Virus record (IMG/VR): IMGVR_UViG_3300033153_006571 | Location: 1-50,718 of that record | From: a virus | Lineage: Duplodnaviria; Caudoviricetes | Reading direction: 5' to 3' (one strand) | DNA: 50,718 bases | In this document: piece by piece, positions 11,329 to 50,718 of the stretch | Position numbering within the stretch: the first letter of the stretch is position 1 | How the letters are laid out: the number at the start of each line of letters is the position of its first letter | Translations under genes and position numbers: made by a program | Notes under the pieces: generated by a model | Told to the model about the DNA's origin: nothing | The model's database searches: none | What the model saw: only the letters and a program-made list of their open reading frames with translations

Positions 11329-12611
11329 TCACACATCTAACCGCAGAACAGGAAGCAAAATTTCCTGAATATGTGAAAAAGTGGACTGAGATAGGTGGAT
11401 GCACAAAGCCTGCTGATAGAGTTAATGCAGAAAAAGCTATTAATGTAATGTATAAAATAGCGGGCCTATATCCGCCTAAAATAATCTGGTGTGGAAGTCC
11501 TTTAGGAAACGCTTTGACAAGAGCGATTGTAATCAAAATAGCTTCGGTCGGGGATTCGGTATGGGCTTCGGTCAGAGATTCGGTCGTGGCTTCGGTCAGA
11601 GATTCGGTCGTGGCTTCGGTCGTAGCTTCGGTCGTAGCTTCGGTCGTGGATTCGGTCTGGGCTTCGGTCAGGGCTTCGGTCGGGGATTCGGTCTGGGCTT
11701 CGGTCGGGGATTCGGTCGGGGATTCGGTCGGGGCTTCGGTCGGGGATTCGGTATGGGCTTCGGTCAGAGATTCGGTCGTGGCTTCGGTCAGAGATTCGGT
11801 CGTGGCTTCGGCCTATGAATCGGTCGGGGCTTCGGTCATGGCTTCGGTCGTGGATTCGGTCTGGGCTTCGGTCAGGGCTTCGGTCGGGGATTCGGTCAGG
11901 GCTTCGGTCGGGGATTCGGTCTGGGCTTCGGTCGGGGATTCGGTCGGGGATTCGGTCTGGGCTTCGGTCAGAGATTCGGTCGGGATGTCAGTATATGGGC
12001 AACATGATGCGAATTGGTTAAGTTTTTTCGATTATTTTAGCAATGAACTTAGTATCAACCTTTCTCAACTTAGGGGATTATGGTTATTGTGCAAATCTGC
12101 AGGATGGGCACTGCCGCACAAAAATATTTGTTGGGTATCCGAGCGGCATAATATTTTAAGAAAAGACGAACAAGGGAGATTACATTGTGAAAATGGTGTA
12201 GCCTTACAATACCCTGATGGATGGAGTCTATATTATTATCATGGGGTAAAGGTGCCTGAATGGGTAATAGAAAAGCCTCATACTATAACACCTAATACAA
12301 TTTTTACGGAAAAAAATGCAGAAATAAGACGTGTTATGATTGAGAAGTTTGGACGGGAAAAGTTTTTGTCTTTACCTACTTGCAAAAAGATTCATACAGA
12401 CGAATGGGGCACGTTATACAGGAACGAGGCAATACGAGACATTAATAGCGAACCATACTGTTTCGTAAAAGTTGTAAATAGTACTCCGGAACCGGATGGA
12501 ACATTTAGGGATTATATCCTGCGCGTCAGTCCGCGTTGTAAAACTGCGCAAGAAGCTGTACAAAGCACTTTCCCTCGTATAGAAAATTTTATGCCTATAG
12601 TTGAAAAATAG
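11325..12611 (+). CDS. DUF6745-like protein with SVxx tetrapeptide repeats
   Basis: YGQHDANWL, GRLHCENG, NAEIRRVMIE and VVNSTPEPDG motifs. Confidence 0.75.
   Translation: MITHLTAEQEAKFPEYVKKWTEIGGCTKPADRVNAEKAINVMYKIAGLYPPKIIWCGSPLGNALTRAIVIKIASVGDSVWASVRDSVVASVRDSVVASVVASVVASVVDSVWASVRASVGDSVWASVGDSVGDSVGASVGDSVWASVRDSVVASVRDSVVASAYESVGASVMASVVDSVWASVRASVGDSVRASVGDSVWASVGDSVGDSVWASVRDSVGMSVYGQHDANWLSFFDYFSNELSINLSQLRGLWLLCKSAGWALPHKNICWVSERHNILRKDEQGRLHCENGVALQYPDGWSLYYYHGVKVPEWVIEKPHTITPNTIFTEKNAEIRRVMIEKFGREKFLSLPTCKKIHTDEWGTLYRNEAIRDINSEPYCFVKVVNSTPEPDGTFRDYILRVSPRCKTAQEAVQSTFPRIENFMPIVEK
11541..11987 (+). repeat. Coding 12-bp tandem repeat G(C/A)TTCGGTnnnn
   Basis: More than 30 visible units encoding (A/D)SVx. 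Confidence 0.95.
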
Positions 12612-12990: not shown

Positions 12991-13467
12991 GTGGATAGAC
13001 AGAAACTTGATAAAATATTGCGGGAGCATAAGAAATGGGTAAACAATGAAGGCGGGAGGAAAGCAGACCTGAGAGGGGCAGACCTGAGAGGAGCAGGCCT
13101 GAGAGGAGCAGACCTGAGAAAAGCAGACCTGAGAAAAGCAGACCTGAGAGAAGCAGACCTGAGAGAAGCAGACCTGAGAGAAGCAGACCTGAGAATGGCA
13201 GTCCTGAGAATGGCAGTCCTGAGAGAAGCAGACCTGAGAGAAGCAGACCTGAGAAAAGCAGACCTGAGAGAAGCAGACATTGATTTTTCAGCTTGGCCTT
13301 TATGGTGCTGCAGTTTCGATGTGGTAGTTGACAAAAGGATAGCTGCGCAGTTAGCATATCATTTTTGCAGGCTTGTCTGTGATGATGATGAAGTCAAGAA
13401 CGCCCAGAAAGCACTTAAGAAAATTGCAAACCAGTTTCACAGAGTCGATGAATGCGGGGAGGTTTAG
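12991..13467 (+). CDS. Pentapeptide repeat protein
   Basis: [15 protein letters not shown] repeats from a 15-bp tandem unit at about 13063-13278. Confidence 0.9.
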
Positions 13468-17185: not shown

Positions 17186-17926
17186 ATGAAAATAACAAAG
17201 GAATTACTTCAAAAAAAAGGTGCTTGCAAGAGAGGTATAGAGTGGTTTAAGGAACGCTTTCCGAATGGCACTACTATTGAAGAAGCAGTAAAAGAACTGG
17301 CGGAAGGAAATATTGATACTGATTTTGTGTGGTGGTTTTATGAACATGTGCAACAAGACGCTAGATTGTATGTTCTATGTGGCGTAATTAATTCATTCGG
17401 CGTGAATGGGTCTTATGGCGTGAATGGGTCTTATGGCGTGAGTTGGTCTAATGGCGTGAATGTGTCTTATGGCGTGAATAGGTCTGATGGCGTGAATGGG
17501 TCTTATGGCGTGAGTTGGTCTAATGGCGTGAGTTGGTCTAATGGCGTGAATGGGTCTGATGGCGTGAGTTGGTCTTATGGCGTGAATGGGTCTTATGGGG
17601 TAATTAACAGCTATGGAGTCGACGCCGCTTTATTTTTGGCGAATAAGCCACGCACTTACAGCATATTTGGCAATGAAGTGTCGGAAGAAAGGTTTATTGA
17701 GGTTAGAAAGAGTTTTTTTGAAAAACTTAATAACTGGAAGCCGACATTTAACAATATTAAGACGAAACATGGTTCAGACTGGAAAGAAGCGCCCATAAAA
17801 AACGCAAAAGCACTATCAAAAGATGAGGCATGGAAGGATATGCCGAAAGAAGCCATAGAATACCTTAAGTCATTGCCCGAATTTGATTCTGACATATTCT
17901 ATGAAGTGACAGGGATAAGAGCGTAA
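17186..17926 (+). CDS. Hexapeptide-repeat (GVNGSY/GVSWSN) protein
   Basis: 18-bp tandem repeats at about 17381-17620; C-terminal LPEFDSDIFYEVTGI. Confidence 0.7.
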   Translation: MKITKELLQKKGACKRGIEWFKERFPNGTTIEEAVKELAEGNIDTDFVWWFYEHVQQDARLYVLCGVINSFGVNGSYGVNGSYGVSWSNGVNVSYGVNRSDGVNGSYGVSWSNGVSWSNGVNGSDGVSWSYGVNGSYGVINSYGVDAALFLANKPRTYSIFGNEVSEERFIEVRKSFFEKLNNWKPTFNNIKTKHGSDWKEAPIKNAKALSKDEAWKDMPKEAIEYLKSLPEFDSDIFYEVTGIRA

Positions 17927-20680: not shown

Positions 20681-20875
20681 GTGCAGGATTCAAAAAATTT
20701 GCGGTGTTCTTTGTGTTTTCGGCAAGCAGTAAGGTCAATTTATTATGCGGATAAGAAAACGAAAATTAGGGCACTTTTTTGCCCTTCCTGTGGGCAATTA
20801 GAAACAGAACAGGGAATAAGAATTTGGAGAGGGAGAGTGAAGAGAAATGAAAAAAGAGAACGGATATTGGGTTGA
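20681..20875 (+). CDS. Small zinc-ribbon protein
   Basis: CSLC...CPSC; GTG start after a GGAGGG RBS. Confidence 0.55.
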   Translation: MQDSKNLRCSLCFRQAVRSIYYADKKTKIRALFCPSCGQLETEQGIRIWRGRVKRNEKRERILG

Positions 20876-21359
20876 CGGAAATGATAATAGATGGAATATA
20901 AATAAATACACTAAGCACAGAGCAGAAGAATTAAGCAAATCATTAATTAATTGTACTAACTGCAGTGATTGCAGTGATTGCAGGGGATGCAGGGGTTGCA
21001 TTGGTTGCATTGATTGCATTGGTTGCAATGATTGCAGGGGTTGCAGTGATTGCAGGAGTTGCAGTGATTGTCTTGATTGCAGGAGTTGCAGTGATTGCCT
21101 TGATTGCATTGGTTGCAGGGGATATACTGGATTTTCACATATGGCATACGGAACACAACCAATCGGCCCTCGGTCTGACGTTGCGCATTTTTATTACTAC
21201 AACAAAAAAATATATGCGAAGTGCGGATGCTTTTGGGGAACTATAGATGAATTTGAAGAAAAAGTTAATAGTACACATGGCACAAATCAATATGCCAAAC
21301 AATATTTTGCAGAAATTGAAAAGGTAAGAGAATTATTTAAGGAGAGTGTAGGGGAATGA
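20847..21359 (+). CDS. Cys-rich Cxx-repeat protein
   Basis: 9-bp tandem unit TGCxxxxxx at about 20951-21120; C-terminal CGCFWGTIDEFEEKV. Confidence 0.7.
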   Translation: MKKENGYWVDGNDNRWNINKYTKHRAEELSKSLINCTNCSDCSDCRGCRGCIGCIDCIGCNDCRGCSDCRSCSDCLDCRSCSDCLDCIGCRGYTGFSHMAYGTQPIGPRSDVAHFYYYNKKIYAKCGCFWGTIDEFEEKVNSTHGTNQYAKQYFAEIEKVRELFKESVGE

Positions 21360-22267: not shown

Positions 22268-22286
22268 GAACACAGAAAAGCCCTGT

Positions 22287-22583
22287 TTAAAGGGCTTTTT
22301 CTCTTGATACCAGCCTTTGGAAGTATTCCTTATACGACTGGCACCCTGTTACCTTTGACCTTGTGCATACAAGCCTTTTGAAGCTTTCATTGCAGTCAAA
22401 GTTGACCCTGGCGGTTCTGCCGGATTCAAATAAGTCCGGTCCGAGAGTCAGAAGACCTTTAGCTTCCGACTGTGCCAGATGGACCAAGTAGTCTTTGTAT
22501 GAGGAAAACCCGAGAAGCCGGGTTCTTTCGAGCACGGTCTCACGGAATTCCTGCGAGCAGTCTATTATTATTCTCATAATCAA
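22287..22583 (-). CDS. Tandem ribbon-helix-helix-like DNA-binding protein
   Basis: Internal duplication: RIIIDCSQEFRETV...GFSSYKDYLVHL versus RVNFDCNESFKRLV...GCQSYKEYFQRL. Confidence 0.55.
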   Translation of the reverse strand: MIMRIIIDCSQEFRETVLERTRLLGFSSYKDYLVHLAQSEAKGLLTLGPDLFESGRTARVNFDCNESFKRLVCTRSKVTGCQSYKEYFQRLVSREKAL

Positions 22584-22696
22584 GCCTCCTCTAACAAATC
22601 TTTGTTGGATGCCTTAGCTTAAAATCTACATCATCCCAGTATTTCTTATAATATTCTTTGCTAGCGGTAGGTCGCCACCCTATTTTTGGGCCGGAC

Positions 22697-22897
22697 TCAT
22701 AGCTCCGGCGGGCTGTTGTCTGCAACTATAGAAAAATATACACTATACTCAGAGTAATGTTTAGTGAATATTTGCGTGCCGTCCTCATTTGTGAAATACT
22801 CACTCCATCCCTCCGCTTTTGCCTCTCGTACTGTTTTAAAAACAGCCTTAATGTTTAAGTTTCCCCTAGGCGTTTTTAAGGTTTTTATAGTTTCCAT
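22697..22897 (-). CDS. Small hypothetical protein
   Basis: 66 aa; AAGGAGGT RBS; stop codon falls inside a repeat copy. Confidence 0.65.
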   Translation of the reverse strand: METIKTLKTPRGNLNIKAVFKTVREAKAEGWSEYFTNEDGTQIFTKHYSEYSVYFSIVADNSPPEL

Positions 22898-22998
22898 AAC
22901 GACCTCCTTCTTTTTACCTGCCTACTTATATTCGCCGGCAGAGGCGATAATGTTGGGGCGCATTTAAGCCTGCGCCGGGGCTTTATTGCAACATTGGC

Positions 22999-23154
22999 TC
23001 AATATTGCATTTCAAATTTTTCGGGGTCCCAAACAGGGATTCCGCCTTCTTCTTCCTCAATGTCTATCCCCAGAAGCTCAAAGCACTCTTCTAGGTGCAT
23101 GCTTCTATTTGTCATGATTTCTCCTACAACTTCTCCTTCGTATAATAGTTTCAT
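22999..23154 (-). CDS. Small acidic protein (51 aa, not in ORF track)
   Basis: MKLLYEGEVVGEIMTNRSMHLEECFELLGIDIEEEEGGIPVWDPEKFEMQY; AAGGAGGT RBS. Confidence 0.7.
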   Translation of the reverse strand: MKLLYEGEVVGEIMTNRSMHLEECFELLGIDIEEEEGGIPVWDPEKFEMQY

Positions 23155-23252
23155 GATTACCTCCTTTTATTGCACCGTATTTCTATTCCCCCGGTGCGGG
23201 GATAATTTTGGCGCGGGACTCGCAGCTCCCGCGGGCTGGGGGGATTTTAGTG

Positions 23253-23402
23253 CTATTCTTCCACCTCCCCAAATTCCATTACCTCCTGGTAGTCGTCAGA
23301 ATCCATTCCTACCAAATCTGACTCCGTATAGACGTATCCGTCCGGAGTCTTAATCCTATTGGGATTACATCCATATTTTTTCAAAAATTCTAAGCCTGTC
23401 AT
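23253..23402 (-). CDS. Small acidic protein (49 aa, not in ORF track)
   Basis: MTGLEFLKKYGCNPNRIKTPDGYVYTESDLVGMDSDDYQEVMEFGEVEE; GGAGGT RBS. Confidence 0.65.
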   Translation of the reverse strand: MTGLEFLKKYGCNPNRIKTPDGYVYTESDLVGMDSDDYQEVMEFGEVEE

Positions 23403-23516
23403 AATTACCTCCATTAATTCAGCGGTAGGTCGCCACCCTATTTTTGGGCCGGACTCTCAGCTCCGGCGGGCTGTTGTCTTATTATGCTACAAGTGGTTAC
23501 CGCTTGTCAACCGGGG

Positions 23517-24116
23517 CTATAAAAGCCCCTTTTCGGCAAGACTTGTTGACTCCTTAGTGCCAGCGCCAACTATGATATGGTCCATTACCTGTATGCCGAC
23601 AGCTTCAAGGGCTTGTTTAACCCTCCTGGTAGAGCGCACGTCAGCATCAGACGGCCTGGAGATGCCTCCGGGGTGGTTATGCGCCAAAATAACGCTTTTT
23701 GAGTCGTGGTCAAGCGCTGTCTTAACAAGTTCCCGGACGTATACTGGGGCTTCGTTAAGCGTTCCTTCAGCAATTACGACAGTCGCAATTAGCCTGTTTT
23801 GCATGTTCAGCAAGGCCACTTCGTAGCATTCTTTGTCAAACTTGTTATTTAGGCGATTTACAAAATATTCAGCTGCTTTTGAGCTGCTATTCAAAACCGT
23901 TTCCTCCTGCACAAACACAAGCTCATTGAGCTGTGATACAAAGGATTTTAGCACTTCTAATTTCCTAACTTGCATCGGGCTAATTCCTATTGCCTTTGGA
24001 TGCTCCAAAGAAAACTTGATTCCCTTCTCTCTAATTTTTTTGCTGCTTACGCCGATAAGCTCCTCGATTTTATCGGCTAAATCGCTTTTTAATACCTGCT
24101 CGTACTTCATGTCCAA
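23517..24116 (-). CDS. radC: RadC-like JAB/MPN domain protein
   Basis: E...VILAHNHPGG..RPSDAD...VMDHIIVG. Confidence 0.9.
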   Translation of the reverse strand: MDMKYEQVLKSDLADKIEELIGVSSKKIREKGIKFSLEHPKAIGISPMQVRKLEVLKSFVSQLNELVFVQEETVLNSSSKAAEYFVNRLNNKFDKECYEVALLNMQNRLIATVVIAEGTLNEAPVYVRELVKTALDHDSKSVILAHNHPGGISRPSDADVRSTRRVKQALEAVGIQVMDHIIVGAGTKESTSLAEKGLL

Positions 24117-24227
24117 CCCCCCTTGATTTTTGAGGCCGCTACATGTATAATGTATTTACAGCGACCTGTGCTGTGCTTACAGTCCCGGCGTTACTTTGGC
24201 GAGTGCTCCGGGACTATCCTATTCTCT

Positions 24228-24407
24228 TTAATATCCATATCTGCTTACATCTTCGATGTAAGTATTGCAGATATCTGCGATATCCTTCTCTCTACGTTGC
24301 ATCTCTTCGTAGAGAGTGTCGCAATGGGAGTCTTCCCACTGTTCCAGGATGTCGATGTATTCGTCGACTTCCTGTTTTATTTTTTTAATTACATTTATTC
24401 TGTTCAT
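24228..24407 (-). CDS. Small acidic helical protein (59 aa, not in ORF track)
   Basis: MNRINVIKKIKQEVDEYIDILEQWEDSHCDTLYEEMQRREKDIADICNTYIEDVSRYGY; AAGGAG RBS. Confidence 0.65.
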   Translation of the reverse strand: MNRINVIKKIKQEVDEYIDILEQWEDSHCDTLYEEMQRREKDIADICNTYIEDVSRYGY

Positions 24408-24493
24408 AATTTAATCTCCTTTAATTCAGCGATAGGTCGCCACCCTATTTTTGGGCCGGACTCTCAGCTCCGGCGGGCTTGGGGGGACAACGG

Positions 24494-24682
24494 CTAAAAG
24501 TTCCTGTCTTGCCTCCATAAGTAGGAGGCCGGTACCTTAACCTCCCTTACAATATCTGCATGGTGTGTCATGCAGGCGGGACAGTATATCCGTCCCTTGA
24601 TATATCTAACAATAGCGTTGCCTTTGTGGTCAAAGGCAACCTCTCGGCTGATTCCGTACTTTTCCAATTTCAATAATTTCAT
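24494..24682 (-). CDS. Small protein with a CxxC..HH motif
   Basis: 62 aa; GAGGAGGT RBS; first gene after the leftward promoter. Confidence 0.65.
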   Translation of the reverse strand: MKLLKLEKYGISREVAFDHKGNAIVRYIKGRIYCPACMTHHADIVREVKVPASYLWRQDRNF

Positions 24683-24757
24683 AATTACCTCCTCATATCT
24701 CAGCGGTAGGTCGCCACCCTATTTTTTTGTGTCGGCGTCCCCGCCGTCCACACTAAC

Positions 24758-24787
24758 ATTATAGCACGGGTGGCAACCGTATGTCTA
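24758..24787 (-). promoter_or_regulatory. Sigma-A promoter of the reverse-strand cluster
   Basis: TAGACA-18-TATAAT with an extended TGn -10; near-palindrome GGTTGCCACC in the spacer. Confidence 0.7.
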
Positions 24788-25012
24788 TAGGACTATGGTC
24801 CTATTTTTTCTAAATACCACCAAATCCGCTTGGCTGTAAGAAAAATTTGTGATTTAGTGGTGTGAGTCATGGGACCAAAGTCCTATTAAGTCCTATGTCG
24901 ATTATAAAAAGACTATAAGATTTTTTGGGTTATGAGTGGTATATTTGTTATATAGCGATTGCAACAGCAATTGCTATTTTTTTATGATTTCTTTTGGGTG
25001 GGAGGTGAGACT

Positions 25013-46419: not shown

Positions 46420-48939
46420 TTGGATTTTGCTTTTGAAACAAGCGATGGAATAAATACCTCAGATATAATATTTCAAAAAACATCAGGCGGTAATGGATGG
46501 GCAATTCGATGGTCTAGTCCATCATGGCCTAATGATGACGGACCAAGATTGTATACTTATTCAGATTCAGGCAATGAAACATTTTGGTTTCATAAAAATA
46601 TGAGTAAGGACACAAAATATTGGTTGAGATTGGTAAGAGAAGGGAATACAGTTACAGGATATTATTCTACAAATGGGCAAAATTACACACAAGCATTTCA
46701 AACTTCAAGCTCAAATGTTCTTGAAGCTTTTGACGATTCCGCAGACGGTGAATATTTGCGGATGGAAACGGATTATGGCACGAAAACAATATATAACCTG
46801 AAAATTGTAAAAGGGATTACGACATATGAATATCTTTTTAATAATAATTTCGGTGTTGACAAGGAAATAATCGCAAATCAGGGCGGTGAGGATGGGCAAT
46901 GTTATAATGGTGCCGAACAAGCCTCAGATGGTACGGATATTTATTTATATACAGCTTTAACGCAAAGAGCTTTTAATTTTACGGATGGTGAAGTATTAAG
47001 AATAATACCAAGCGCAACTCAAACAGCAGGATTAACAGCATATGTCAGAGTTAATAGCTGGGGAACATATTATCCTGTTAGTAATATAGAATTAACGGCT
47101 GACGAATATTATGAATTAATATGGGACAATGCAAATGAGGAATGGAATGCTTTTAGAAACCTTGAGGCAAGTGATTTTACAGATTTAACGGATAGTGGAG
47201 ACTCAACATTACATTATCATGCATCCGATAGAGCAAGAAGTAATCATACAGGTACACAAGCGGCAAGTACAATAAGCGATTTTGATACTGAGGTAAGTAA
47301 CAATACAGATGTTGCAGCAAATACAACAGCAAGACATTCAAGGAAGCATGACATAAACGGTACCGATGACCATAACGGAGTAGGGGGAGCAACAGAAGAT
47401 AACTTTGTATCTTTTGATGCTAATGGGCTGCCGAAAGATTCAGGGCATAATGACACTGATTATGAGGACGCAGGAGCGGTTGCTACTCATGCGACACTAA
47501 CTGAAACACACGGAGCTACAGGGGCAATCATGGGCACAACTAATACACAAGAGGTATCAAACAAAACCTTGACGCCAAAAGCAACAGTCAAAGGTAACGC
47601 GGCTTCGGATGCCGCAACTTTAGGTAGTGAACTTGTCACAAACGGTACATTTGACAGTGACTTATCAGGTTGGACAATATCAGATACAGGCACAAAATGG
47701 ACATGGGATGCTACAGGTGCAGCTATCCATAATGGTGATGGTAACACTGAAACAATAAGTCAGAATGTAAATGTCACATTAGATGAGTATTATGTCTTAG
47801 CTTTTACTATATCAGGAAGAACAGCAGGAACATTGACACCTTCTCTGAATGGGGTAAATGGATATGCGCAAAGTACAGATAATACTTATTATTTCAGTTG
47901 GAAAGCTACTGCCACAGCAGCACATTCTCTGATGTTCACACCTTCGGGAACATTTAATGGTAAATTGGATGATATTTCATTCAAACAAGTTACGGCTGAT
48001 TTGGCAGCATTGATTGAATTAAAGGATTCTGGTGGGGCTGTAAGTGCAGAAATGCGGAGTGGAACTAATACTTTGTATAATTTCTTTATCGGTTATAATA
48101 GTGGGAAAAATAATTATAATGGACATTATAATGCGGCAATAGGCTATGCGACAATGCAGAATAATACAATAGGACATTATAATGCAGCAATAGGCTATGC
48201 GGCAATGCAGAATAACATAACTGGTTATGCTAATGCAGCAATAGGCTATGCGGCAATGCGCAGTAACATAACTGGTTCTGCTAATGTGGCTATAGGATAT
48301 ACAACAATGCATTATAACACAACTGGTTCTACTAACGCAGCTATAGGCTATGCGGCAATGTATCACAACACAACTGGTTCTACTAACGCAGCAATAGGCT
48401 TTACTGCAATGCGCAGTAACACAACTGGTTCTGCTAATGCGGCTATAGGTTCTTATGCAATGCGTCATTCACAGACTGGAAATAACAATATTAGCATAGG
48501 TGGTTATTCTTGTGGATATGGTACAGGTGCAGTCTTTACCGCAGCCTCAAACCACGTAGTTATCGGGCATCAGGCTGGATACAACATAGGCACTTCTGAT
48601 TCAGCAAATGTAATGATAGGCTATCAAGCAGGGTACAATGAAACTGGTAGTAATAAGCTCTACATTTCAAACACAAATACTGCAACACCGCTTATATATG
48701 GAGAGTTTGATAATGGTATATTGGGATTTACGGCACAAGTAGGCATAGGCACAAAAACACCTAACGCAAATGCCGCATTGGATATAGCAAGCACAACAAA
48801 GGCATTTATGCCACCAAGAATGACAACAGTACAAAAAAATGCAATAGGAACGCCTGCGGCAGGTATGGTTGTATATGATACAGATTTATCAAAACTATGT
48901 GTATATACAAACGCATGGGAAACTATAACAAGTTCATAA
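46420..48939 (+). CDS. Tail fibre/receptor-binding protein, C-terminal part
   Basis: Lectin/CBM-like segments (ELVTNGTFDSDLSGW), 14-aa NAAIGYAAM..N..G repeats at about 48100-48500, VGIGTKTP...PPRMTT end; only a weak TTG start. Confidence 0.75.
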   Translation: MDFAFETSDGINTSDIIFQKTSGGNGWAIRWSSPSWPNDDGPRLYTYSDSGNETFWFHKNMSKDTKYWLRLVREGNTVTGYYSTNGQNYTQAFQTSSSNVLEAFDDSADGEYLRMETDYGTKTIYNLKIVKGITTYEYLFNNNFGVDKEIIANQGGEDGQCYNGAEQASDGTDIYLYTALTQRAFNFTDGEVLRIIPSATQTAGLTAYVRVNSWGTYYPVSNIELTADEYYELIWDNANEEWNAFRNLEASDFTDLTDSGDSTLHYHASDRARSNHTGTQAASTISDFDTEVSNNTDVAANTTARHSRKHDINGTDDHNGVGGATEDNFVSFDANGLPKDSGHNDTDYEDAGAVATHATLTETHGATGAIMGTTNTQEVSNKTLTPKATVKGNAASDAATLGSELVTNGTFDSDLSGWTISDTGTKWTWDATGAAIHNGDGNTETISQNVNVTLDEYYVLAFTISGRTAGTLTPSLNGVNGYAQSTDNTYYFSWKATATAAHSLMFTPSGTFNGKLDDISFKQVTADLAALIELKDSGGAVSAEMRSGTNTLYNFFIGYNSGKNNYNGHYNAAIGYATMQNNTIGHYNAAIGYAAMQNNITGYANAAIGYAAMRSNITGSANVAIGYTTMHYNTTGSTNAAIGYAAMYHNTTGSTNAAIGFTAMRSNTTGSANAAIGSYAMRHSQTGNNNISIGGYSCGYGTGAVFTAASNHVVIGHQAGYNIGTSDSANVMIGYQAGYNETGSNKLYISNTNTATPLIYGEFDNGILGFTAQVGIGTKTPNANAALDIASTTKAFMPPRMTTVQKNAIGTPAAGMVVYDTDLSKLCVYTNAWETITSS

Positions 48940-49603: not shown

Positions 49604-49691
49604 TACTATTTTTATAGTAATTTAGTCCTATTTTTTAGAAAAACCTTCAAAAAATCATTTATAATGTAAGAAAAAAAAAGGGGGCTTGTTT

Positions 49692-50197: not shown

Positions 50198-50718
50198 ATG
50201 GCTACAGTTCCCGGTTATGATACTTATTTAAGGGAAGGTATGACGGATAAAAGAGTAGGGCAGCTTCAAGGTGCATTGTCCGACTTAGGTTATGACGTTG
50301 GTCCTATAGACAATATATTTGGCCCAAAAACAGCCGGAGCATTAAGACAATTTCAAACAGAGCAAGATATACAGGCGGATGCTATATATGGGCCTGAAAC
50401 AGCTGGAGCATTGCAACAAGCACTCGCAGGAGTTCAACCGGCAACACAACCAACACAACAGCCTGTAACTCAACCTACGGCACAGCCTTTACAGCAAATT
50501 CAACAGCCGGTACAGCAGACACCGCAACAACCTGTGTTGCCACAAATGCCACAATTCAACTATCAGTCACCATATACCGGGCAAATACAGGACATAATAC
50601 AGCAGCTTCAAGGTAGGCAGTTCCAATATGACCCGGCCAAAGACATTGCATTGCAGCAGGCACAACAGCAGGCGATAAATAAAGTTAGTGAAGAAATGGC
50701 TTCAAGAGGAATATTGAG
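50198..50718 (+). CDS. N-terminal PG_binding_1 domain and Q/P/T linker of the junction-spanning protein
   Basis: LREGM...VGQLQGALSDLGY...DNIFGPKTAGALRQFQ...DAIYGPET; GAGGTGA RBS; no stop before the window end. Confidence 0.8.
   Translation, partial: MATVPGYDTYLREGMTDKRVGQLQGALSDLGYDVGPIDNIFGPKTAGALRQFQTEQDIQADAIYGPETAGALQQALAGVQPATQPTQQPVTQPTAQPLQQIQQPVQQTPQQPVLPQMPQFNYQSPYTGQIQDIIQQLQGRQFQYDPAKDIALQQAQQQAINKVSEEMASRGIL

Follow-up and report, generated by a model that had tools for sequence, protein, structure and literature searches.

Pseudoknots and hairpins situated beside ribosome-binding sites are familiar from the T4 gene 32 operator, the IncI-alpha repZ activator and ribosome standby sites, and the radC RNA motif of Rfam is a metagenomic 5'-UTR motif that precedes radC and other phage-type DNA genes. 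Short repeated elements are found ahead of genes in Cluster K mycobacteriophages, where the SAS and ESAS are conserved asymmetric sequences that keep one orientation and are preceded, in about half of the cases, by an inverted repeat at a variable spacing; their function is given as unknown and a role in translation initiation is proposed (PMC3203893). The PeSL cassettes of T4-type phages are small repeated regulatory units located between non-essential ORFan genes (PMC2839356). The 44-nt xrRNA of the dianthovirus type is a small stem-loop, the loop of which pairs just downstream, and it has two alternative conformations; a flaviviral xrRNA stops the bacterial RNase J1 in vitro (10.1101/262683; PMC5760640). 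No xrRNAs are known outside eukaryotic viruses.

The window analyzed here, a stretch of 50,718 nucleotides, is the complete genome of a temperate phage (IMG/VR record IMGVR_UViG_3300033153_006571). It carries a minus-strand operon made of small orphan genes and one RadC-like gene, and all the features described below are on that strand. A predicted promoter, P1 (24758..24787; TAGACA-18-TATAAT, with a TG ahead of the -10 hexamer; 11 of 12 positions matched in a consensus scan), would drive the operon, and a terminator scan places a terminator-like hairpin with a T-rich tail at its end (22276..22299). A predicted internal promoter, P2 (23481..23510; TTGACA-18-CATAAT, again 11 matches out of 12), lies directly after the RadC-like gene. 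Five of the seven ORFs have a small repeated module directly upstream (copies A to E), a sixth module (copy F) lies 79 nt ahead of the last ORF, and the RadC-like gene is the only gene of the operon that has none. Within the window, these six modules, four copies with a common 20-nt motif and two variant copies, are confined to the operon, each ahead of an ORF. Operator-like TAGGAC...GTCCTA palindromes also occur near the modules. The reads of one DNA sequencing run covered only the two ends of the operon, not the modules.

The 20-nt core motif, UAGGGU-NRYG-ACCUAY-CRYU, is reached through the CCAAAAA linker of the near-identical copies. No other part of the module is as well conserved, and the motif is the sole part found in other phages, except that the related phage G001 also has copies of the upstream hairpin, element 1. 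A first-pass annotation of this DNA had overlooked the motif together with its fourth copy, which lies outside the range that it covered (24721-24702). This copy, A (24702..24721; UAGGGU-GGCG-ACCUAC-CGCU; 48.2 bits with model R1), has no element 1 and is found behind P1, 19 nt before a 62-aa ORF (24682-24497). Copy B (24428..24447; 48.4 bits) is 20 nt before a 59-aa ORF (24407-24231), copy C (23421..23440; 50.2 bits) is ahead of a 49/53-aa ORF (23414-23256), and copy F (22663..22682; 51.2 bits) has its next SD and start codon, those of a 96-aa ORF, 79 nt away. Model R1 gives four matches of at least 48 bits in the window, the next one scoring 12 bits, and 12 matches of at least 39.8 bits at other loci, the next one scoring 10.4 bits. 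The five intercistronic copies share one layout, in which a hairpin is followed by CCAAAAA, then by the folded element and then by the SD. In copy A, a GC hairpin near the start of the P1 transcript (24731..24748), present in both the MFE and the centroid fold, stands in for element 1. Copies A and C are directly behind sigma-70-type promoters (two of the six modules thus follow a promoter-like site), suggesting that the element also serves as a primary 5' UTR; P2 would put element 1 of copy C at the very 5' end of its transcript.

The first-pass annotation had drawn element 1 as a pseudoknot with two covarying stems, and the strings that it quoted are all present on the minus strand where it had located them. 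Copies B (24455..24480), C (23448..23473) and F (22690..22715) are near-identical, and copies D (23213..23238) and E (22957..22983) have diverged. The 6-bp hairpin is solid. Its stem, GCCGGA/UCCGGC with an 8-nt loop in copy B, GCGGGA/UCCCGC in D and GGCGCA/UGCGCC in E, is paired in 42 of 42 cells over seven copies (five from the window and two from G001), with three pairs changed on both sides, and all the substitutions that separate the near-identical copies fall outside it. By contrast, the pseudoknot stem, formed between an upstream segment and the loop, is weak, with 27 of 35 cells paired across the same seven copies. It amounts to 4 bp in C (CAGC/GCUG) and D, 5 bp in E (AAGCC/GGCUU) and, counting a wobble, 4 bp in the D-like copy of G001, but to only 3 bp in three of the seven (B, F and G001a), and the three pairs that are changed on both sides all derive from the single copy E. 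For the pairing that would knot the hairpin, the proposed covariation thus comes from that one copy. In copy F, the loop contains the stop codon of the 66-aa ORF, so that the final 8 residues are encoded by the module; the two homologues of this ORF terminate sooner, and a search of IMG/VR returned no relatives of it. The minus-strand hairpins lead into CCAAAAA rather than into a U-tract, unlike intrinsic terminators, and a terminator scan of the module region returned plus-strand look-alikes only, with weak stems.

In copies D and E, the place of the core motif is taken by a roomier element 2. That of copy D (23172..23202), UCCCC[GCACCG]GGGGA followed by a 9-nt A-rich spacer and CGGUGC, lies 7 nt ahead of the SD of a 51-aa ORF, and that of copy E (22918..22947), UCGCC[U CUGCC]GGCGA followed by the same 9-nt A-rich spacer and GGCAG, lies ahead of the SD of the 66-aa ORF. 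Both have the make-up of a candidate H-type pseudoknot, with stems of 5 and 6 bp in D and of 5 and 5 bp in E and a third loop of 9 nt, the first loop being tight at 0-1 nt. When mononucleotide shuffles of the same leader were searched for a hairpin and a loop-to-downstream pairing that together were as long, 1 of 3000 reached that of copy D and 16 of 3000 that of copy E. The second pseudoknot-like element that had been reported in the two diverged copies is thus beyond chance. The D-type knot is not conserved in G001, where the loop of the homologous module is 4 nt long and lacks a partner downstream. Since one gene of the G001 operon also lacks any module, the fold would not be required for expression. 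A pattern for the D/E type of element 2 found no match in IMG/VR, and a generic descriptor (hairpin, loop-downstream pairing, SD) proved too permissive, with 17 and 11 matches on the two strands of the window versus 0-9 in shuffles. The hairpins of D and E may bear some resemblance to CRISPR repeats.

The core motif consists of an invariant 5' flank, (A)UAGGG, a 5-bp stem, U-N-R-Y-G/C-R-Y-U-N, and an invariant loop, ACCUAY, within which CCUA is able to pair with UAGG of the flank. The evidence for this structure comes from alignment A4, which holds 17 distinct rows, and is accompanied by the following sequence line:

DISCRETENESS

At stem pair 8-19, 14 rows have G-C and three have A-U; at pair 9-18, 11 have C-G and six have U-A. 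Neither pair is mismatched in any of the 17 rows, though the search patterns permitted mismatches; over the whole stem, 92.9% of the cells are paired. The G-U wobbles at pairs 6-21 and 7-20 are compatible with this strand only, since they become C-A on the other one, and the pairings are therefore strand-specific. Eleven unpaired or flank positions are near-invariant while the stem positions covary, an invariance of flank and loop that is partly one of ascertainment, the search patterns having fixed most positions of the motif. A scan in which positions 3, 4, 12 and 13 were freed found no variant, so the flank-loop helix UAGG/CCUA is without covariation support. In the 20-nt form, moreover, the full pseudoknot would have a third loop of 1 nt across a 4-bp helix, which is too short by textbook pseudoknot geometry. 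Two other readings were considered and rejected. RNAfold prefers a nested 8-bp hairpin with a bulge in six of 15 rows, but this hairpin loses a pair in the three rows with A at position 8, with no compensatory change. Mimicry of an anticodon loop (GU-NRY-GA) and a codon (the downstream RYU) would place the triplet in frame with the start in six of 14 cases, about the chance level, and the D/E loops are of 6 nt. Whole-leader RNAfold z-scores, from -0.2 to -2.6, are unremarkable.

When IMG/VR, JGI metagenomes and 185,579 species genomes were scanned with patterns, the core motif came to light in another 12 non-coding contexts that differ in sequence: G001 (2 sites), L007/L075, L077, L068/70/73, L069/72/111/113, L071, L074, L076, L078, L081, L110/112 and L114. 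In these, it is always in the sense orientation, 6-38 nt ahead of an ORF of at least 30 aa, and a purine-rich, SD-like run, judged by eye, separates it from the start codon in 15 of the 17 distinct rows. There is one coding context, inside trpE (L079/80), which we take as a chance occurrence. The motif recurs in unrelated phages. Between two of its carriers, the window phage and G002, a blastp comparison at E<1e-4 revealed no shared trans factor, only two weak matches, one of a lysin-like ORF (27% identity) and one over 45 residues. The downstream proteins are unrelated orphans, none of the 11 non-trpE proteins matching a Pfam family above the curated cut-off. One copy in G001 closely matches that of the window through to the SD, between unrelated genes; in the other contexts, the flanks are wholly different and only the 20-nt core is common. 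The succession of hairpin, A/C-rich spacer and motif reappears in L007, L071 and L114, and no upstream hairpin is obvious by eye in many contexts, such as L078, L081 and L068. The contexts vary widely in G+C content and in SD use, the SD abutting the motif in L069 and L071. Like copies A and C of the window, those of L069 and L007 are in primary 5' UTRs, soon after promoters. A search with the RadC-like gene returned one distant locus and one with the neighboring HTH gene four (L105-L108); in L105, which is related to the window phage, the small genes are preceded by nothing more than plain GC hairpins, and neither motif nor module occurs in the examined part of L106.

No Rfam family accounts for these elements. 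At the gathering threshold, Rfam 15 has no match anywhere in the window; with E up to 10, the region 22400-24900 gives only two chance-level matches, elsewhere than on the motif, and with E up to 5, nine other motif loci give none on the motif. This search of 4227 families, which the first-pass annotation had called for, agrees with its description of a structured RNA module that it did not recognize, as do the strand-specific pairings and the sense placement just upstream of ORFs. Neither the operon nor one 76-nt module, used as a separate query, has a blastn match among 50,697 GenBank phage records, even with E up to 10, and 72,556 plasmids yielded two chance-level partial matches only. Among known classes of element, a riboswitch would call for a coherent function of the downstream genes, and these are unrelated orphans. 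A sigma-54 promoter would need a different spacing, and the AGUG and AAUG variants do not keep its GG; the core sites of an integron attC are absent; a nut-like antitermination site is at odds with the many copies and with a boxA-like tail that is not conserved; and an ops-like element is present on the template strand only.

From the strand bias of the pairings and the position of the modules we infer that they act as RNA, probably as a signal, so far uncatalogued, that affects translation or the stability of the messenger. Our tentative preference is for cis-acting mRNA leader modules, or cistron headers, in an accessory operon of the moron type. A GC-rich hairpin, an A-rich single-stranded spacer and a small folded element 6-38 nt before the start codon would together make up one module, the folded element being the 20-nt motif in four copies and, with the same layout, a roomier hairpin with a loop-downstream pseudoknot in two. 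It would give each cistron a structured 5' boundary directly ahead of an unpaired ribosome-binding site; such a boundary may protect the message from 5'-end-dependent decay, keep a 30S subunit on standby, or both, while the message segment that comes before would receive its cap from the upstream hairpin. As near-identical modules stand between genes that are otherwise different, a second role as homology patches for the swapping of gene cassettes is probable. Among the functions suggested in the first-pass annotation, the module may mark processing sites or stop exonucleases that work from 5' to 3'. Antitermination is unlikely because the element precedes nearly every cistron and sits in primary 5' UTRs behind promoters, an arrangement unlike that of nut- and put-type sites, and a role of the single-stranded DNA finds no support.

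The evidence was also weighed against other explanations. The near-invariance of the 11 unpaired or flank positions alongside covarying stem positions, the absence of motif variants with intermediate scores and the location just 5' of the SD would all suit an operator for a trans-acting regulator, with the T4 gene 32 and RegA operators as models: an RNA-binding protein or a small RNA, encoded by the host or the phage, would contact flank and loop and switch translation of the downstream gene. We regard this as somewhat unlikely, because contexts that differ so widely in G+C content and SD use would require a nearly universal partner, whereas no candidate was found, the downstream genes are unrelated and the window phage and G002 have no common protein beyond the two weak matches. 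The order of hairpin, CCAAAAA, folded element and SD in the five intercistronic copies, seen again in L007, L071 and L114, and the lack of U-tracts that would make the hairpins sense-strand terminators, could equally be the signature of processing punctuation comparable to the RNase III sites of T7 early mRNA, where a host endonuclease of the RNase Y or E type would cut the A-rich spacer, leaving the hairpin as a 3' cap upstream and the motif as a 5' cap downstream. A cut would be needless, however, in the primary 5' UTRs near promoters (A, C, L069, L007), and many contexts (L078, L081 and L068 among them) have no upstream hairpin obvious by eye, so that this explanation is unlikely. A bolder proposal is that the 20-nt motif is a portable, self-sufficient RNA device, kept near letter-for-letter in phages whose hosts belong to different phyla and acting on a universal machine. 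As a preformed helix, it might bind to the 30S platform and recruit ribosomes even without an SD (L078, L114), or it might be the first bacteriophage counterpart of an xrRNA, a hairpin/knot switch stalling 5'-3' or 5'-end-dependent RNases before each cistron; we consider this decidedly unlikely.

Two further explanations dispense with a role of the modules in the messenger. The inverted repeats that overlap within the motif, the location of the modules at junctions between shuffled genes and the TAGGAC...GTCCTA operator-like palindromes nearby could point to a site on the DNA at which a protein binds in a fixed orientation: a repressor site resembling a stoperator, say, or an alternative promoter, or a place where recombination captures cassettes. 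Yet two crossing, overlapping inverted repeats that are G-U-compatible on one strand fit RNA and not duplex DNA, all the non-coding instances have one orientation relative to the gene, and the spacing to the start, with the SD abutting the motif in L069 and L071, is too small for a promoter plus a leader. Neither the spacing nor the variants AGUG and AAUG suit a sigma-54 promoter, and no recombinase or regulator is common to the phages, which makes a DNA-level site highly unlikely. Hardly credible is a selfish or neutral repeat, a REP/MITE-like hitch-hiker or by-product of recombination with no role in expression, even though three near-identical copies are found in one operon and another in G001, and copy F overlaps the end of an ORF and has no adjacent SD. 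The spread of a mobile repeat would not leave only the 20-nt core common between wholly different flanks, and the position and strand of the motif relative to start codons are constant, with a stem kept by compensatory changes.

Phage accessory and anti-defense genes are usually tiny orphans, the expression signals of which are poorly understood. If the cistron-header reading is true, a reusable leader moving together with these genes would account for their remaining expressible once they have been shuffled from genome to genome. That the core is nearly invariant across differing G+C contents and ribosome-binding habits points to a conserved partner. The 20-nt motif and its covariance model would offer a search handle for new cassettes in metagenomes, and the module could supply a very small natural part for stabilizing or insulating cistrons in synthetic operons.

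How, then, do the modules compare with the systems described at the outset? With the pseudoknots that adjoin ribosome-binding sites, they have in common a compact H-type knot or hairpin shortly 5' of an unstructured SD; those are single sites serving one gene and one regulator, whereas the module serves repeatedly, in different phages and ahead of many unrelated genes. The radC RNA motif is likewise metagenomic, phage-like and located in a 5' UTR, and a RadC-like gene is found in the neighborhood here, but this is precisely the one gene of the operon without a module, and a cmscan with 4227 Rfam families of the region (E up to 10) and of nine other loci (E up to 5) gave no radC match. What the modules would share with xrRNAs of the dianthovirus type is a small stem-loop with loop-to-downstream pairing and a choice of two conformations; sequence similarity to xrRNAs is absent, and no ring around the 5' end is demonstrable. 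Like the PeSL cassettes, between which recombination shuffles genes, the modules are small repeated units located among ORFan genes; a PeSL, however, is a promoter plus a terminator stem-loop (PMC2839356), whereas here only two of six modules follow a promoter-like site, the hairpins have no U-tract and the conserved core is a leader element adjoining the SD. The likeness to SAS is that of a conserved, oriented repeat located immediately upstream of many gene starts in one phage. SAS, however, includes the SD, lies 3-7 bp from the start and is limited to one phage cluster, while the core motif is separate from the SD, lies 6-38 nt upstream of the start and occurs in phages of differing G+C content and SD usage (PMC3203893). 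Unlike SAS, the core motif also has a stem that covaries. Since its sequence and its distance from the start differ, the core-motif module is, on these two counts, an analogue of SAS and not a member. The best reading is that the module constitutes a new family of a known kind, the cis-acting mRNA leader.

The most notable feature of the window is a near-invariant 20-nt leader motif that is common to unrelated uncultured phages and new to Rfam and the collections searched. In the window it reads UAGGGU-GGCG-ACCUAY-CGCU and directly follows the A-rich 'linker' in four copies of the module (lettered in transcript order), all on the minus strand: A (24721-24702), B (24447-24428), C (23440-23421) and F (22682-22663). 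The first-pass annotation, which had described repeated pseudoknot candidates, overlooked this 20-mer, the module part that recurs in other loci. A loose pattern gave 62 loci in IMG/VR, of which just two contigs are real, and one with positions 8, 13 and 19 freed gave 7; the JGI metagenomes yielded 13 motif loci, and GTDB, at one genome per species, a single one in an Acutalibacteraceae MAG. With duplicates merged, there are 12 non-coding contexts beyond the window; one further occurrence, inside a trpE gene, is treated as chance. In every one of the 12, the motif lies on the coding strand, 6-38 nt ahead of an ORF with 30 or more codons; among the window copies only F, 79 nt before the next ORF, departs from this spacing. 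The flanks have nothing in common except an A- or CA-rich run, the proteins encoded downstream are orphans with no relation to one another, and the contigs range from 33% G+C without Shine-Dalgarno-type (SD) sites to GC-rich soil contigs. A covariance model sets members cleanly apart from all else, with zero intermediates (at least 48 bits against 12 for the next match in the window; at least 39.8 against 10.4 in other loci). The Acutalibacteraceae contig also carries, about 500 nt from the motif and on the opposite strand, a sub-threshold match to Gut-1 RNA (L081, 2532-2604, plus strand; 35.2 bits against a gathering score of 50, E 0.0014). A relative found via the neighbouring HTH gene (L105, 1900-3300, minus-strand reading) has a similar divergent operon in which a simple GC hairpin sits shortly 5' of the SD of each small gene, without the 20-nt motif.

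Because UAG and CUA are each present twice, three alternative pairings can be drawn within the motif. The alignment (17 distinct rows) favours the stem U6-N7-R8-Y9-G10/C17-R18-Y19-U20-N21, in which pairing holds in 92.9% of cells. At pair 8-19, 14 rows have G-C and 3 have A-U; at pair 9-18, 11 have C-G and 6 have U-A; neither is ever mismatched, though the search patterns permitted it. G-U wobbles at 6-21 and 7-20 are compatible with the motif strand only. A nested 8-bp bulged hairpin is thermodynamically just as good; the three A8 rows lack its pair 8-13 and show no compensation. The invariant flank UAGG and loop CCUA could pair with each other; freeing positions 3, 4, 12 and 13 in a scan turned up no variants of either, and their helix is a candidate only. 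With a third loop of 1 nt, a full knot looks too tight by textbook rules; the motif may form a partial knot or switch between two states.

The modules of copies D and E are laid out like the 20-nt motif: a flank starting with U is followed by a stem and by a loop opening with the flank's complement, and 9 extra loop bases remove the strain of the tight knot. Their element 2, the second folded part, is a 5-bp hairpin whose 6-nt loop is complementary to 6 or 5 bases located downstream across a spacer of exactly 9 A-rich bases, a pairing equalled in 1/3000 (D) and 16/3000 (E) shuffles of the same leaders. The predicted fold is a classical H-type knot in which the first loop is tight. This knot is not obligatory, since the homologous D-like module of the related phage G001, whose loop has 4 nt, lacks the downstream partner.

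Element 1, a GC hairpin, is near-identical in B, C and F, diverged in D and E, and occurs twice more in G001; every string quoted for it and for element 2 in the first-pass annotation is found in the window. Copy A lacks it and is preceded by a different GC hairpin right behind the operon promoter. Covariation had been claimed for both stems of element 1. It holds for the 6-bp stem, paired in 42/42 cells of a seven-row alignment with three pairs altered on both sides; among the near-identical copies, every substitution falls outside this stem. The proposed second stem, joining an upstream tetramer to the loop, is paired in 27/35 cells, and all its two-sided changes come from copy E; it spans 4-5 bp in C, D and E and in G001's D-like copy (there with a wobble), and just 3 bp in B and F and in G001's A-type copy. 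The alignment thus supports element 1 well as a hairpin and leaves the pseudoknot as no more than a possibility.

The record, 50,718 bases long with an exact 36-nt terminal direct repeat (1-36 and 50683-50718), is a complete or circularly permuted genome, and its genes (serine integrase, repressor, anti-repressor, DnaD-like loader, RecT, ArpU-like regulator, terminase) indicate a temperate phage of a Gram-positive host. The module operon occupies the minus strand from about 24,790 to 22,276, with regulator genes on one side and packaging genes on the other; apart from the integrase-repressor pair (6.4-8.2 kb) it is the only minus-strand block of any size. Its products are six small orphan proteins and a JAB protein of RadC-like type, and it resembles a moron-type accessory cluster. 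Strong sigma-70-type promoter matches lie at its start (P1, 24787-24758) and within it (P2, 23510-23481), each at 11/12 consensus positions, and a terminator-like site lies at its end (22299-22276), all on the minus strand. The RadC-like gene alone has no module and is flanked by two other hairpins (24182-24214 and 23513-23529). Operator-like palindromes TAGGAC-N4/5-GTCCTA (24780-24900) overlap and precede P1, and a 45-nt relative lies near the right genome end (49607-49651). In metagenome contig L076 the motif is likewise preceded by this palindrome (8-25), and the contig therefore probably derives from a relative. Elsewhere, a gene at 20847-21359 contains a cysteine-rich repeat array (CxxCxxC-type, period 9 nt) and has a homologue in G001 (54% identity); long in-frame tandem arrays (periods 12, 15, 18 and 51 nt) lie inside plus-strand genes, at 11469-12032, 13026-13308, 17344-17631 and 48078-48485, the one at 17.3 kb with weak collagen-like tail-fibre matches.

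The orientation and position of the motif, its strand-specific wobbles and the covariation of its stem all favour an RNA leader element and make a DNA-level site improbable. The earlier description, an unrecognised structured RNA, was right in kind, the observation being real but partly over-read. A riboswitch is ruled out by the lack of a common function downstream, a terminator by the absence of a U-tract, and a nut-type site by the occurrence of the motif in primary 5' UTRs and before almost every cistron. The mechanism we infer, somewhat short of an even chance, is that of a reusable 'cistron header', which would give each small gene a structured 5' boundary ahead of an open ribosome-binding site. 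This boundary might protect against 5'-end-dependent decay, provide ribosome standby, or both, while the hairpin before the motif would cap the upstream message. That the motif is instead an operator for some universal binder seems unlikely. It is also unlikely that all carriers share a phage-encoded partner, since the window phage and another motif-bearing phage, G002, have just two weak protein matches in common, one to a lysin-like ORF. Endonucleolytic punctuation within the A-rich spacer is slightly less probable still, and a selfish repeat is very improbable.

Whatever its mode of action, the module behaves as a cassette. G001 shares with the window phage a 59-aa protein (75% identity) and a few others, and its modules lie at gene junctions unlike those of the window, one matching a window module closely up to the SD. 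In addition, a 66-aa ORF ends in the loop of module F (22697-22725), which codes its last 8 residues, and two database homologues (60 and 64 aa) stop earlier. The modules recall the SAS/ESAS repeats of Cluster K mycobacteriophages, for which no function is known either (PMC3203893). Such cassette behaviour has been described for the PeSL cassettes of T4-type phages (PMC2839356).
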